6,392 nt of DNA from a virus (lineage: Duplodnaviria; Heunggongvirae; Uroviricota; Caudoviricetes), in IMG/VR virus record IMGVR_UViG_2711768012_000002, one strand, 5' to 3'. The notes beneath the pieces are model-generated. The model was not told the DNA's origin. It did no database searches and saw only the letters and a program-made list of their open reading frames with translations. Shown here one piece after another: positions 1 through 6,392 of the stretch; the stretch's first letter is position 1; each line of letters opens with the position of its first letter. The translations under genes and the position numbers were made by a program.

Positions 1-980
1 AGGACGGCTATCCTGGCTGGATGCCGCAGAAATGGACATGGATACCCCGTGAGTTACCCGGCGGGCGCGCCTCGTTCATTCACGTTTTTGAACCCGTGGA
101 GGACGGGCAGACCCGCGGTGCAAATGTGTTTTACAGCGTAATGGAGCAGATGAAGATGCTCGACACGCTGCAGAACACGCAGCTGCAGAGCGCCATTGTG
201 AAGGCGATGTATGCCGCCACCATTGAAAGTGAGCTGGATACGCAGTCAGCGATGGATTTTATTCTGGGCGCGAACAGTAAGGAGCAGCGGGAAAGGCTGA
301 CGGGCTGGATTGGTGAAATTGCCGCGTATTACGCCGCAGCACCGGTCCGTCTGGGAGGCGCAAAAGTGCCGCACCTGATGCCGGGGGACTCACTGAACCT
401 GCAGACGGCTCAGGACACGGATAACGGCTACTCCGTGTTTGAGCAGTCACTGTTGCGGTATATCGCTGCCGGGCTGGGTGTCTCGTATGAGCAACTTTCC
501 CGGAATTACGCCCAGATGAGCTACTCCACGGCACGGGCCAGTGCGAACGAGTCGTGGGCGTACTTTATGGGGCGGCGAAAATTCGTCGCATCCCGTCAGG
601 CGAGCCAGATGTTTCTGTGCTGGCTGGAAGAGGCCATCGTTCGCCGCGTGGTGACGTTACCTTCAAAAGCGCGCTTCAGTTTTCAGGAAGCCCGCAGTGC
701 CTGGGGGAACTGCGACTGGATAGGCTCCGGTCGTATGGCCATCGATGGTCTGAAAGAAGTTCAGGAAGCGGTGATGCTGATAGAAGCCGGACTGAGCACC
801 TACGAGAAAGAGTGCGCGAAACGCGGTGACGACTATCAGGAAATTTTTGCCCAGCAGGTCCGTGAAACGATGGAGCGCCGCGCAGCTGGTCTTAAACCGC
901 CCGCCTGGGCGGCTGCAGCATTTGAATCCGGGCTGCGACAATCAACAGAGGAGGAGAAGAGTGACAGCAGAGCTGCGTAA
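1..980 (+). CDS. B: Portal protein gpB, C-terminal part (5' end lies upstream of the window); open frame runs from position 3 to TAA at 978..980
   Basis: Uninterrupted frame to the window start; the 319-aa ORF-track translation (MPQKWTWIPRELPGG...SDSRAA) matches my recollection of the lambda portal protein C-terminus. Stop overlaps the downstream GTG start of C by 20 nt, as in lambda. Confidence 0.93.
   Translation, partial: DGYPGWMPQKWTWIPRELPGGRASFIHVFEPVEDGQTRGANVFYSVMEQMKMLDTLQNTQLQSAIVKAMYAATIESELDTQSAMDFILGANSKEQRERLTGWIGEIAAYYAAAPVRLGGAKVPHLMPGDSLNLQTAQDTDNGYSVFEQSLLRYIAAGLGVSYEQLSRNYAQMSYSTARASANESWAYFMGRRKFVASRQASQMFLCWLEEAIVRRVVTLPSKARFSFQEARSAWGNCDWIGSGRMAIDGLKEVQEAVMLIEAGLSTYEKECAKRGDDYQEIFAQQVRETMERRAAGLKPPAWAAAAFESGLRQSTEEEKSDSRAA
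948..955 (+). promoter_or_regulatory. Shine-Dalgarno AGGAGGAG for gene C, embedded in the 3' end of the portal gene
   Basis: AGGAGGAG at 948..955, followed by a 5-nt spacer and GTG at 961. Confidence 0.7.
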
Positions 981-2280
981 TCTCCCGCATATTGCCAGCA
1001 TGGCCTTTAATGAGCCGCTGATGCTTGAACCCGCCTATGCGCGGGTTTTCTTTTGTGCGCTAGCAGGCCAGCTTGGGATCAGCCGCCTGACGGATGCGGT
1101 GTCCGGCGACAGCCTGACTGCCCAGGAGGCACCCGCGACGCTGGCATTATCCGGTGATGATGACGGACCACGACAGGCCCGCAGTTATCAGGTAATGAAC
1201 GGCATCGCCGTGCTGCCGGTGTCCGGCACGCTGGTCAGCCGGACGCGGGCGCTGCAGCCGTACTCGGGGATGACCGGTTACAACGGCATTATCGCCCGTC
1301 TGCAACAGGCTGCCAGCGACCCGATGGTGGACGGCATTCTGCTCGATATGGACACACCGGGCGGAATGGTGGCGGGAGCATTTGACTGCGCTGACATCAT
1401 CGCCCGTGTGCGTGACATAAAGCCGGTATGGGCGCTGGCCAATGACATGAACTGCAGCGCAGGTCAGCTGCTTGCCAGTGCCGCCTCCCGGCGTCTGGTC
1501 ACGCAGACCGCCCGGACAGGCTCCATCGGCGTCATGATGGCTCACAGTAATTACGGCGCTGCGCTGGAGAAACAGGGCGTGGAAATCACGCTGATTTACA
1601 GCGGCAGCCATAAGGTGGATGGCAACCCCTACAGCCATCTACCGGATGACGTCCGGGAAACACTGCAGTCCCGGATGGATGCAACCCGCCGGATGTTTGC
1701 ACAGAAGGTGTCGGCATATACCGGCCTGTCCGTGCAGGCTGTGCTGGATACCGAGGCTGCAGTGTACAGCGGTCAGGAGGCCATTGATGCCGGACTGGCT
1801 GATGAACTTGTCAACAGCACCGATGCGATCACCGTCATGCGTGATGCGCTGGATGCACGTAAATCCCGTCTCTCAGGAGGGCGAATGACCAAAGAGACTC
1901 AATCAACAACTGTTTCAGCCACTGCTTTGCAGGCTGACGTTACTGACGTGGTGCCAGCGACGGAGGGTGAAAACGCCAGCGCGGCGCAGCCGGACGTGAA
2001 CGCGCAGATCACCGCAGCGGTTGCGGCAGAAAACAGCCGCATTATGGGGATCCTCAACTGTGAGGAGGCTCACGGACGCGAAGAACAGGCTCGCGTGCTG
2101 GCAGAAACTCCCGGTATGACCGTGGAAACGGCCCGCCGAATTCTGGCCGCAGCACCACAGAGTGCACAGACGCGCAGTGACACTGCGCTGGATCGTCTGA
2201 TGCAGGGGGCACCGGCACCGCTGGCTGCAGGTAACCCGGCATCTGATGCCGTTAACGATTTGCTGAACACACCAGTGTAA
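961..2280 (+). CDS. C: Prohead protease gpC (S49/SppA-like serine protease), 439 aa, GTG start
   Basis: GTG at 961 preceded by AGGAGGAG; translation VTAELRNLPHIASMAFNEPLMLEPAYARVFF... to ...DAVNDLLNTPV, TAA at 2278..2280. Length of 439 aa matches lambda gpC. Contains the NDMNCSAGQLLASAA motif with the candidate catalytic Ser166 codon AGC at 1456..1458. The ORF-track start at 826 is an upstream in-frame extension that overlaps B. Confidence 0.92.
   Translation: MTAELRNLPHIASMAFNEPLMLEPAYARVFFCALAGQLGISRLTDAVSGDSLTAQEAPATLALSGDDDGPRQARSYQVMNGIAVLPVSGTLVSRTRALQPYSGMTGYNGIIARLQQAASDPMVDGILLDMDTPGGMVAGAFDCADIIARVRDIKPVWALANDMNCSAGQLLASAASRRLVTQTARTGSIGVMMAHSNYGAALEKQGVEITLIYSGSHKVDGNPYSHLPDDVRETLQSRMDATRRMFAQKVSAYTGLSVQAVLDTEAAVYSGQEAIDAGLADELVNSTDAITVMRDALDARKSRLSGGRMTKETQSTTVSATALQADVTDVVPATEGENASAAQPDVNAQITAAVAAENSRIMGILNCEEAHGREEQARVLAETPGMTVETARRILAAAPQSAQTRSDTALDRLMQGAPAPLAAGNPASDAVNDLLNTPV
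1675..2280 (+). CDS. Nu3: Scaffolding protein Nu3, nested in-frame in the 3' part of C and sharing its stop; start ambiguous (ATG 1675 giving 201 aa, or ATG 1885 giving 131 aa)
   Basis: In-frame ATG at 1675 corresponds to the lambda Nu3 coordinate as I recall it (5132). A second in-frame ATG at 1885 has a canonical AGGAGG Shine-Dalgarno at 1875..1880 and would give a 131-aa product (MTKETQSTTVSATALQ...). The C-terminus is shared with gpC. Confidence 0.6.
   Translation: MDATRRMFAQKVSAYTGLSVQAVLDTEAAVYSGQEAIDAGLADELVNSTDAITVMRDALDARKSRLSGGRMTKETQSTTVSATALQADVTDVVPATEGENASAAQPDVNAQITAAVAAENSRIMGILNCEEAHGREEQARVLAETPGMTVETARRILAAAPQSAQTRSDTALDRLMQGAPAPLAAGNPASDAVNDLLNTPV
1875..1880 (+). promoter_or_regulatory. 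Internal Shine-Dalgarno AGGAGG inside gene C, 4 nt upstream of the in-frame ATG at 1885 (candidate Nu3 initiation site)
   Basis: tctcAGGAGGgcgaATGacc read directly from the sequence. Confidence 0.6.
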
Positions 2281-2289
2281 GGGATGTTT

Positions 2290-2622
2290 ATGACGAGCAA
2301 AGAAACCTTTACCCATTACCAGCCGCTGGGCAACAGTGACCCGGCTCATACCGCAACCGCGCCCGGCGGATTGAGTGCGAAAGCGCCTGCAATGACCCCG
2401 CTGATGCTGGACACCTCCACCCGTAAGCTGGTTGCGTGGGATGGCACCACCGACGGTGCTGCCGTTGGCATTCTTGCGGTTGCTGCTGACCAGACCAGCA
2501 CCACACTGACGTTCTACAAGTCCGGCACGTTCCGTTATGAGGATGTGCTCTGGCCGGAGGCTGCCAGCGACGAGACGAAAAAACGGACCGTGTTTGCCNN
2601 NNNNNNNNNNNNNNNNNNNNNN
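2290..2622 (+). CDS. D: Head decoration protein gpD; last ~8 codons including the stop are hidden by the N run starting at 2599, so the end coordinate is inferred
   Basis: ATG at 2290 with AAGGGA 5 nt upstream; translation [27 protein letters not shown]...[10 protein letters not shown] matches lambda gpD (110 aa) up to the mask. An alternative ATG at 2284 would add MF. Confidence 0.85.
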
Positions 2623-2811
2623 NNNNNNNNNNNNNNNNNNNNNNNNNNNNNNNNNNNNNNNNNNNNNNNNNNNNNNNNNNNNNNNNNNNNNNNNNNNNNN
2701 NNNNNNNNNNNNNNNNNNNNNNNNNNNNNNNNNNNNNNNNNNNNNNNNNNNNNNNNNNNNNNNNNNNNNNNNNNNNNNNNNNNNNNNNNNNNNNNNNNNN
2801 NNNNNNNNNNN
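2599..2811. other. Run of 213 N (masked or unsequenced); hides the gpD C-terminus, the D-E intergenic region and the N-terminal part of gpE
   Basis: Literal n characters in the sequence. Confidence 1.
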
Positions 2812-2812
2812 G

Positions 2813-3433
2813 CTCAAGGGCAAATACACCATGACCGGTGAAGCCTTCGATCCGGTTGAGGTGGATATGGGCCGCAGTGCGGCGAACAACATCACGCAGT
2901 CCGGCGGTACGGAGTGGAGCAAGCGTGACAAGTCCACGTATGACCCGACCGACGATATCGAAGCCTACGCGCTGAACGCCAGCGGTGTGGTGAATATCAT
3001 CGTGTTCGATCCGAAAGGCTGGGCGCTGTTCCGTTCCTTCAAAGCCGTCAAGGAGAAGCTGGATACCCGTCGCGGCTCTCATTCCGAGCTGGAGACAGCG
3101 GTAAAAGACCTGGGCAAAGCGGTGTCCTATAAGGGAATGTATGGCGATGTGGCCATCGTCGTGTATTCCGGACAGTACGTGGAAAACGGCGTCAAAAAGA
3201 ACTTCCTGCCGGACAACACGATGGTGCTGGGGAACACTCAGGCTCGCGGTCTGCGCACCTNNNNNNNNNNNNNNNNNNNNNNNNNNNNNNNNNNNNNNNN
3301 NNNNNNNNNNNNNNNNNNNNNNNNNNNNNNNNNNNNNNNNNNNNNNNNNNNNNNNNNNNNNNNNNNNNNNNNNNNNNNNNNNNNNNNNNNNNNNNNNNNN
3401 NNNNNNNNNNNNNNNNNNNNNNNNNNNNNNNNN
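2813..3433 (+). CDS. E: Major capsid protein gpE, internal fragment; readable from 2813 to 3259 (about residues 136-284 of a 341-aa protein). The 5' end is lost in the first N run and the 3' end at ~3433 is inferred inside the second N run.
   Basis: Translation LKGKYTMTGEAFDPVEVDMGRSAANNITQSGGTEWSKRDKSTYDPTDDIEAYALNASGVVNIIVFDPKGWALFRSFKAVKEKLDTRRGSHSELETAVKDLGKAVSYKGMYGDVAIVVYSGQYVENGVKKNFLPDNTMVLGNTQARGLRT matches lambda gpE (HK97 fold). The 3' end assumes 57 further codons plus a stop with no indels. Confidence 0.85.
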
Positions 3434-3510
3434 NNNNNNNNNNNNNNNNNNNNNNNNNNNNNNNNNNNNNNNNNNNNNNNNNNNNNNNNNNNNNNNNNNN
3501 NNNNNNNNNN
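3261..3510. other. Run of 250 N (masked or unsequenced); hides the gpE C-terminus, the E-FI intergenic region and about the first 15 codons of gpFI
   Basis: Literal n characters in the sequence. Confidence 1.
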
Positions 3511-3864
3511 CAATTGAACCGCGATGTCAGTTTGACGGGAACGAAAGAAGAACTGGCGCTTCGTGTGGCAGAGCTGGAAGAAGAGCTTGATGACACGGAT
3601 GAAACTGCCGGTCAGGACACCCCTCTCAGCCGGGAAAATGTGCTGACCGGGCATGAAAATGAGGTGGTATCAGCGCAGCCGGATACCGTGATTCAGGATA
3701 CGGCTGAACTGGTCACGGTCGTGGCACTGGTGACGCTGCATACTGATGCACTTCACGCCACGCGGGATAAACCTGTGGCATTTGTGCTGCCGGGAACGGC
3801 GTTTCGTGTCTCTGCCGGTGTGGCAGCCGAAATGACAGAGCGCGGCCTGGCCAGAATGCAATAA
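3466..3864 (+). CDS. FI: DNA-packaging / head assembly protein gpFI; start inferred inside the N run, readable from 3511
   Basis: Readable translation QLNRDVSLTGTKEELALRVAELEEELDDTDETAGQDTPLSRENVLTGHENE...AAEMTERGLARMQ, TAA at 3862..3864, matches lambda gpFI residues ~16-132. The start is placed 15 codons upstream assuming a lambda-like N-terminus. Confidence 0.82.
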   Translation, partial: XXXXXXXXXXXXXXXQLNRDVSLTGTKEELALRVAELEEELDDTDETAGQDTPLSRENVLTGHENEVVSAQPDTVIQDTAELVTVVALVTLHTDALHATRDKPVAFVLPGTAFRVSAGVAAEMTERGLARMQ

Positions 3865-3875
3865 CGGGAGGCGCT

Positions 3876-4229
3876 GTGGCTGATTTCGATAACCTGTTCG
3901 ATGCTGCCATTGCCCGCGCCGATGAAACGATACGCGGGTACATGGGAACGTCAGCCACCATGACATCCGGTGAGCAGTCAGGTGCGGTGATACGTGGTGT
4001 TTTTGATGACCCTGAAAATATCAGCTATGCCGGACAGGGCGTGCGCGTTGAAGGCTCCAGCCCGTCCCTGTTTGTCCGGACTGATGAGGTGCGGCAGCTG
4101 CGGCGTGGAGACACGCTGACCATCGGTGAGGAAAATTTCTGGGTAGATCGGGTTTCGCCGGATGATGGCGGAAGTTGTCATCTCTGGCTTGGACGGGGCG
4201 TACCGCCTGCCGTTAACCGTCGCCGCTGA
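3876..4229 (+). CDS. FII: Head-tail joining protein gpFII, 117 aa, GTG start
   Basis: GGGAGG at 3866..3871 followed by GTG at 3876; translation (M)ADFDNLFDAAIARADETIRGYMGTSAT...LGRGVPPAVNRRR, TGA at 4227..4229; matches lambda gpFII. Confidence 0.94.
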   Translation: MADFDNLFDAAIARADETIRGYMGTSATMTSGEQSGAVIRGVFDDPENISYAGQGVRVEGSSPSLFVRTDEVRQLRRGDTLTIGEENFWVDRVSPDDGGSCHLWLGRGVPPAVNRRR

Positions 4230-4240
4230 AAGGGGGATGT

Positions 4241-4819
4241 ATGGCCATAAAAGGTCTTGAGCAGGCCGTTGAAAACCTCAGCCGTATCAGCAAAACGGCG
4301 GTGCCCGGTGCCGCCGCAATGGCCATTAACCGCGTTGCTTCATCCGCGATATCGCAGTCTGCGTCACAGGTTGCCCGTGAGACAAAGGTACGCCGGAAAC
4401 TGGTAAAGGAAAGGGCCAGGCTGAAAAGGGCCACGGTCAAAAATCCGCAGGCCAGAATCAAAGTTAACCGGGGGGATTTGCCCGTAATCAAGCTGGGTAA
4501 TGCGCGGGTTGTCCTGTCCCGCCGCAGGCGTCATAAAAAGGGGCAGCGTTCATCCCTGAAAGGTGGCGGCAGCGTGCTTGTGGTGGGTAACCGTCGTATT
4601 CCCGGCGCGTTTATTCAGCAACTGAAAAATGGCCGGTGGCATGTCATGCAGCGTGTGGCCGGGAAAAACCGTTACCCCATTGATGTGGTGAAAATCCCGA
4701 TGGCGGTGCCGCTGACCACGGCGTTTAAACAAAATATTGAGCGGATACGGCGTGAACGTCTTCCGAAAGAGCTGGGCTATGCGCTGCAGCATCAACTGAG
4801 AATGGTAATAAAGCGATGA
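4241..4819 (+). CDS. Z: Tail completion protein gpZ, 192 aa
   Basis: AAAGGGGG upstream, ATG at 4241; translation MAIKGLEQAVENLSRISKTAVPGAAAMAINRV...[11 protein letters not shown]; stop TGA at 4817..4819 overlaps the U start (ATGA); matches lambda gpZ. Confidence 0.94.
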   Translation: MAIKGLEQAVENLSRISKTAVPGAAAMAINRVASSAISQSASQVARETKVRRKLVKERARLKRATVKNPQARIKVNRGDLPVIKLGNARVVLSRRRRHKKGQRSSLKGGGSVLVVGNRRIPGAFIQQLKNGRWHVMQRVAGKNRYPIDVVKIPMAVPLTTAFKQNIERIRRERLPKELGYALQHQLRMVIKR

Positions 4820-5211
4820 AACATACTGAACTCCGTGCAGCCGTACTGGATGCACTGGAGAAGCATGACACCGGGGCGACGCTTTTTGATGGTCGCCCCG
4901 CTGTTTTTGATGAGGAAGATTTTCCGGCAATTGCCGTTTATCTCACCGGCGCTGAATACACGGGCGAAGAGCTGGACAGCGATACCTGGCAGGCGGAGCT
5001 GCATATTGAAGTTTTCCTGCCTGCTCAGGTGCCGGATTCAGAGCTGGATTCGTGGATGGAGTCCCGGATTTATCCTGTGATGAGCGATATCCCGGCACTG
5101 TCAGATTTGATCACCAGTATGGTGGCCAGCGGCTATGACTACCGGCGCGACGATGATGCGGGCCTGTGGAGTTCAGCCGATCTGACTTATGTCATTACCT
5201 ATGAAATGTGA
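4816..5211 (+). CDS. U: Tail tube terminator protein gpU, 131 aa
   Basis: ATG at 4816 overlaps the Z stop; translation [52 protein letters not shown]...LTYVITYEM; TGA at 5209..5211; matches lambda gpU. Confidence 0.94.
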
Positions 5212-5218
5212 GGACGCT

Positions 5219-5959
5219 ATGCCTGTACCAAATCCTACAATGCCGGTGAAAGGTGCCGGGACCACCCTGTGGGTTTATAAGGGGAGCGGTGACCCTTATG
5301 CGAACCCGCTTTCAGACGTTGACTGGTCGCGTCTGGCAAAAGTTAAAGACCTGACGCCCGGCGAACTGACCGCTGAGTCCTATGACGACAGCTATCTCGA
5401 TGATGAAGATGCGGACTGGACTGCGACCGGGCAGGGGCAGAAATCTGCCGGAGATACCAGCTTCACGCTGGCGTGGATGCCCGGAGAGCAGGGGCAGCAG
5501 GCGCTGCTGGCGTGGTTTAATGAAGGTGATACCCGTGCCTATAAAATCCGCTTCCCGAACGGCACGGTCGATGTGTTCCGTGGCTGGGTCAGCAGTATCG
5601 GTAAGGCGGTGACGGCGAAGGAGGTGATTACCCGCACGGTGAAGGTCACCAATGTGGGACGTCCGTCGATGGCAGAAGATCGCAGCACGGTGACGGCGAC
5701 GACCGGCATGACGGTGACACCCGCCAGTGCTTCCGTAGTGAAAGGGCAGAGCACCACGCTGACCGTGGCATTCCAGCCGGATGGCGCAACCGACAAGAGC
5801 TTCCGTGCGGTGTCTGCGGATAAAACAAAAGCCACCGTGTCGGTCAGTGGTATGACCATCACCGTGAAAGGTGTTGCTGCAGGCAAGGTCAACATTCCGG
5901 TCGTATCTGGTAATGGTGAGTTTGCTGCGGTTGCAGAAATCAACGTCACCGCCAGTTAA
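5219..5959 (+). CDS. V: Major tail tube protein gpV, 246 aa, with a C-terminal Ig-like (Big_2-type) domain at about 5696..5956
   Basis: GAGGA at 5210..5214 followed by ATG at 5219; translation [42 protein letters not shown]...AEINVTAS; TAA at 5957..5959. The ORF-track start at 5189 is an unsupported upstream extension that overlaps U. Confidence 0.93.
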
Positions 5960-5974
5960 TCCGGAGAGTCAGCG

Positions 5975-6392
5975 ATGTTCCTGAAAACCGAATCATTTGA
6001 ACATAACGGTGTGACCGTCACGCTTTCTGAACTGTCAGCCCTGCAGCGTATTGAGCATCTCGACCTGATGAAACGGCAGGCAGAACAGGCGGAGTCAGAC
6101 AGCAACCGGAAGTTTACTGTGGAAGACGCCATCAGAACCGGCGCTTTTGTGGTTGCGATGTCCCTGTGGCATAACCATCCGAAGAAGACGCAGATGCCGT
6201 CCATGAATGAAGCCGTTAAACAGATTGAGCAGGAAGTGCTTACCACCTGGCCCACAGAGGCAATTTCTCATGCTGAAAACGTGGTGTACCGGCTGTCCGG
6301 TATGTATGAGTTTGTGGTGAATGATGCTCCTGAACAGGCAGAGGACGCCGGGCCTGCAGAGCCTGTTTCTGCGGGAAAGTGTTCGACGGTGA
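5975..6392 (+). CDS. G: Tail assembly chaperone gpG, 3' partial (139 of ~140 codons in the window; stop lies just beyond the window end)
   Basis: GGAGA at 5963..5967 followed by ATG at 5975; translation MFLKTESFEHNGVTVTLSELSALQRIEHLDLMKRQAEQAESDSNRKF...PAEPVSAGKCSTV with no stop before the window end. Missing from the ORF track only because it has no in-window stop. Confidence 0.92.
   Translation, partial: MFLKTESFEHNGVTVTLSELSALQRIEHLDLMKRQAEQAESDSNRKFTVEDAIRTGAFVVAMSLWHNHPKKTQMPSMNEAVKQIEQEVLTTWPTEAISHAENVVYRLSGMYEFVVNDAPEQAEDAGPAEPVSAGKCSTV
6373..6379 (+). promoter_or_regulatory. Programmed -1 ribosomal frameshift slippery heptamer G_GGA_AAG (gpG to gpGT fusion)
   Basis: In the G frame the codons are GCG GGA AAG (6371..6379), giving GGGAAAG at 6373..6379 at the position of the known lambda G-T frameshift site near the 3' end of G. 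Confidence 0.8.

Follow-up and report, generated by a model that had tools for sequence, protein, structure and literature searches.

The closest described counterpart of the locus is the D-E-FI head gene block of bacteriophage lambda (NC_001416; gene coordinates used here are D 5747-6079, E 6135-7160, and the whole block 5747-7600). Two further known objects bear on it, namely the scaffold gap of short-read draft genomes and the defective (cryptic) lambdoid prophage, and defective prophages are common in Shigella. The window, i.e., the whole 6392-bp stretch of DNA analyzed here, shares with the lambda block the gene order, the reading frames, and the domains PF02924, PF03864, and PF14000. It differs in belonging to a Shigella sonnei prophage and in the substitutions A101V in D and E158A, E159A, and N229H in E, while middle parts of D-E-FI are hidden under two runs of N, which does not imply a difference from lambda at those positions. 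The underlying biology is that of an ordinary lambda D-E-FI head block in a S. sonnei prophage, with no new biology.

As in a scaffold gap, the N runs stand in a whole-genome shotgun record between reference-collinear contigs, the genes on either side carry partial annotations, the region is a multi-copy prophage region, and the run length departs from the conventional 100 N. There is no difference in kind from such a gap; the error of the first run (-270 nt) is large and lies inside the range of the sister scaffolds (-270 to +219 nt). The likeness to defective lambdoid prophages is restricted to the apparent length shortfall, whereas the window lacks a junction, an IS end, and decay of neighboring genes, and sister isolates have the region intact. 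On comparison with lambda and sister sequences, the first N run is most probably (about 0.93) an ordinary assembly gap, and the “missing” 270 bases would be an artefact rather than the trace of a deleted capsid gene.

Organization of the Window and Fit to Lambda

All genes of the window lie on the plus strand. The 3' part of the portal gene B (1-980; intact open frame collinear with lambda) and the protease/scaffold gene C with the nested Nu3 (961-2280; intact open frame) are followed by codons 1-103 of the 110 codons of the head decoration gene D (2290-2598; PF02924), ungapped from the lambda D start. Between the first N run (2599-2811, 213 N) and the second (3261-3510, 250 N) are codons 136-284 of the major capsid gene E (2812-3260; PF03864 on the 149-aa fragment). 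The E frame starts at 2813 with codon 136; position 2812 belongs to codon 135 (third base) and position 3260 to codon 285 (first base). Codons 16-132 and the stop of the DNA-packaging gene FI (3511-3864; PF14000; lambda from 7247) come next, and then FII, Z, U, V, and G (3876-6392) as intact open frames collinear with lambda, G being cut 5 nt short by the scaffold end (lambda 10128 versus 10133). Positions 6373-6379, G GGA AAG in the G reading frame, are presumably the heptamer of the lambda G/T programmed -1 frameshift. No frameshifts or stops were found in the neighboring genes, with B', C/Nu3, FII, Z, U, V, and G' all open and of lambda length. NCBI names the D fragment “head decoration protein, partial [Shigella sonnei]” (WP_052973314.1) and the E fragment “major capsid protein, partial [Shigella sonnei]” (WP_072108841.1).

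Ungapped blastn alignments placed window 1-2598 at lambda 3458-6055, 2812-3260 at lambda 6539-6987 (97.8% identity), and 3511-6392 at lambda 7247-10128. The three readable pieces have 97.5-98.0% identity to lambda with zero indels, and they follow lambda in order and orientation right up to the final base at each edge; no novel junction and no foreign or IS sequence was seen at the N edges in this alignment. The first N run occupies the place of lambda 6056-6538, which is 483 nt compared to 213 N, a shortfall of 270 nt. These 483 nt comprise 24 nt of the D end (stop included), a 55-nt spacer, and 404 nt of E; by homology, the run hides D codons 104-110 and the stop, the hairpin-containing D-E spacer, and the first 135 codons of E. 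The second run stands for 259 nt in lambda compared to 250 N (shortfall 9 nt) and by homology hides E codons 285-341 with the stop, a 41-nt spacer, and FI codons 1-15. The figures of a first-pass annotation made from the letters alone (~484 nt required, 213 present, ~270 short, 250 against ~259 for the second run, and E resuming at residue ~136) were right within 1 nt once the flanks had been aligned to lambda NC_001416. The shortfalls are deterministic counts and carry no statistical signal; both 270 and 9 are multiples of 3, with a chance probability of 1 in 9.

The Ns in the Public Record and in Sister Scaffolds

The window is the whole of the public S. sonnei draft scaffold CWVT01000196.1 (GCA_001248215.1), Ns included. 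An exact look-up of the window gpC returned this single record, and NCBI attaches gpC to S. sonnei; no literature mention of the accession CWVT01000196.1 was found. The scaffold is made of three contigs of 2598, 449, and 2882 bp, and the N edges mark the exact ends of both the gene calls and the RefSeq partial proteins. As the Ns are in the public record, they belong to the draft scaffold and no mask was applied to the window. Of the two origins that the first-pass annotation had offered for the run as a placeholder, an arbitrary-length gap was thus retained and a mask discarded, the former agreeing with the unreliable N lengths of the sister scaffolds.

Sister scaffolds of neighboring accession series were found by look-up of the truncated products. 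CWTZ01000257.1 (GCA_001252555.1; L325) encodes the identical 103-aa D fragment and breaks at the same base, lambda 6055, followed by 254 N where homology lacks just 35 nt. Reading resumes at lambda 6091 and continues across the D-E and E-FI spacers, with both E (341 aa) and FI (132 aa) complete; the entire 259-nt interval of the second gap of the window is read without a break. CWVQ01000195.1 (GCA_001250875.1; L326) holds E codons 12-291 in one stretch, and its N runs of 73, 266, and 96 N correspond to homologous lengths of 245, 240, and 248 nt. The interval of the first gap is covered for 448 of its 483 nt by L325 and for 373 by L326. Two ungapped S. sonnei contigs (L323 and L324, the latter from AAVUAV010000066.1) have the interval intact, with the D tail GTAISIV*, the spacer, and the E N-terminus. 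Across L325, L326, L323, and L324, E residues 1-134 equal lambda where read, and codon 135 straddles the gap edge. An intact E with normal D-E spacing, which the first-pass annotation had named as the result that would make the N run a mere placeholder, was essentially found, but in sister scaffolds of the same series. With 24 mismatches over 2713 shared positions for L325 and 28 over 5546 for L326, the sister scaffolds differ from the window at the base level and may represent a different prophage copy.

Compared to homology, the six N runs of the three scaffolds have errors of -270, -9, +219, -172, +26, and -152 nt, with a mean absolute error of 141 nt and r = -0.13 versus homologous length. 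N counts in this assembly series carry no usable length information. The argument that the first run stands out because the second is length-consistent was contradicted by these errors, and, the N lengths being unrelated to the homologous lengths, the match of 250 to 259 looks coincidental. N-run lengths in short-read drafts are unusable for inferring deletions, above all in multi-copy prophage modules.

Read as an assembly gap, the window would be a draft S. sonnei scaffold in which three lambda-type prophage head-tail contigs were joined by scaffolding, a step that would have written N for unassembled sequence with lengths that are software estimates. The sequence hidden under the first run would most likely be the ordinary 483 nt, i.e., the D end and the spacer followed by codons 1-135 of an E that is intact at 341 aa, as judged for this isolate from sister scaffolds and relatives. 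The assembly probably broke here because the genome seems to carry at least two lambdoid prophages that differ by about 1%, as a short-read assembler would be unable to thread near-identical copies and would leave short mosaic contigs and poorly sized gaps.

Prophage Copies and the Breaks in the Assembly

An allele table over lambda coordinates 4137-9149 revealed two alleles at almost every variable site and few private alleles besides the two haplotypes, with the window, L325, and L326 carrying different block patterns. In FI-Z, the window and L325 match at all of 795 nt, yet they are 1.2% apart in C/Nu3. The 439-aa gpC of the window was on no other contig in an index of 153 billion genes, which is odd for a clonal pathogen and raised the suspicion of a chimeric consensus. 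Judging from these patterns, the scaffold probably merges co-resident prophage copies into a chimeric consensus. Among E. coli genomes with the module, the median copy number is two and the highest nine. Contigs from multi-copy prophage regions may be chimeras, and protein variants such as the unique gpC may not exist in nature. The gpU protein of the window is too widespread to point to one haplotype.

A variant of the gap reading, possible although rather unlikely, is that the flanking contigs were mis-scaffolded from different co-resident prophage copies, or are chimeric, and that the gap has no single true length. The different block mosaics of two haplotypes in the window, L325, and L326, the unique gpC, and the change from identity in FI-Z to 1.2% divergence in C/Nu3 are in favor of this variant, whereas natural recombination among lambdoid prophages could yield the same mosaics in a single copy.

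Three candidate causes of the gap length or of the breaks were rejected. Naive estimators of gap size from pair distances are biased since long gaps are spanned by long inserts only (bioRxiv 10.1101/023929). A model of this bias gave estimates of ~160-245 nt for a 483-nt gap with ordinary libraries and so reproduced ~213, but it is insufficient as an explanation, for it would shrink 259 to ~130-160 nt (compared to 250) and cannot give the 254 N found for 35 nt in L325. An IS insertion at the common break after lambda 6055 was dismissed on contig edges without non-lambda bases, and breaks at sharp mosaic boundaries of lambdoid head modules were dismissed as the identity profiles had no such transitions.

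Breaks after lambda 6055 and before lambda 7247 were common to the scaffolds (window 2598/2599 and 3510/3511; L325 1469/1470; L326 3682/3683). The common positions are at least partly an ascertainment effect, given that the sister scaffolds and the Logan/ENA contigs were found via truncated-product queries, and they may also lie where prophage copies branch apart in the assembly graph.

Spacing in Relatives and the Possibility of a Deletion

The spacing of the head block was conserved among relatives. The phage records listed all span ~2280 bp for a 2001-bp query, and the best 30 E. coli complete genomes span ~6671 bp compared to the 6392 bp of the window. The D-FI span is 1849-1855 bp in the best 40 and in 54 evenly sampled full-coverage E. 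coli genomes, versus 1575 bp in the window. Among 86 loci with all three pieces, the first interval measures 481-484 nt and the second 259 nt in 84 loci, with 256 and 238 nt in one each. A gapped pattern of the flanks with 198-228 nt between them had no match in IMG/VR and none in metagenome contigs, compared to at least 120 matches in IMG/VR and at least 120 in metagenome contigs with 468-498 nt between them. Full-length relatives in species-representative genomes all have a 341-aa E.

A real deletion, in which ~270 nt (90 codons) between the D end and E codon 136 were lost and the N count is accurate, is very improbable. If true, E would be without much of its N-terminal region and the prophage unable to build capsids. 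The N run does fall short of the homologous interval by 270 nt, a multiple of 3, as expected of a private in-frame deletion with ~90 N-terminal E codons gone, an exact N count, and a freshly inactivated prophage, an event given the same very low likelihood; only one of the four discrepancies in the sister scaffolds is divisible by 3. The frequency of defective prophages in Shigella and the existence of natural gpE disruptions such as IS621 in STEC384 and STEC379 also speak for a deletion. Against it, a deletion junction would be unique sequence that is normally assembled rather than written as Ns, both edges are lambda-collinear to the last base, and neighboring genes are all intact open frames. 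In addition, N runs of the series proved both too short and too long, by as much as 270 nt, and neither two large collections nor ~180 inspected relatives yielded a short allele. The sister scaffolds carry the region intact, with the E N-terminus in place and normal D-E spacing, and the alternative offered in the first-pass annotation, a deletion or rearrangement leaving a defective capsid gene, was not supported.

A mask laid by the preparer of the window or by the databases over a stretch of different length has a next to negligible probability. A few stretches in one sequence collection are known to be masked as N, but the NCBI-derived record is also 6392 with the same Ns, independent gene calls and both partial proteins (WP_052973314.1 and WP_072108841.1) end at the N edges, and two sister records have their N runs elsewhere.

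Additional Observations on Relatives and Spacers

Two E. coli modules, NZ_CP091029.1 3579766-3587715 and NZ_CP091024.1 3630258-3638207, measure 7950 bp versus 6671 bp, and their annotation includes an IS621-family transposase and two features named “major capsid protein”. They represent real IS disruption of gpE in STEC strains, in contrast to the artefact of the window. In two chromosome-scale assemblies (L004 and L005; GCA_040188945.1 and GCA_040188935.1), the portal, protease, and tape-measure genes were split and the D-E interval had 1-2 nt indels; these defects look like uncorrected long-read indel errors, not biology.

A gpE 96-100% (mostly 99-100%) identical to the lambda-type query was also found on short low-coverage contigs of unrelated draft genomes (L011-L026, L032, L043-L063, and others), including Chromatium weissei, Kitasatospora papulosa, Bradyrhizobium, Neobacillus, Prevotella pallens, and an Akkermansia MAG, and most likely reflects contamination with lambda DNA. 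The record “Campylobacter phage CJLB-4” (MW057783.1) scored exactly as lambda.

The D-E spacer, as read in L325 at 1730-1751, contains a GC-rich hairpin followed by a T run (AAAGGCCGCCTGTGTGGCTTTTTTT), with a folding energy of -10.3 kcal/mol and z = -1.6 versus shuffles, which is not significant alone. The E-FI spacer has a similar hairpin-like motif (GGCCCTTCGGGGCC).
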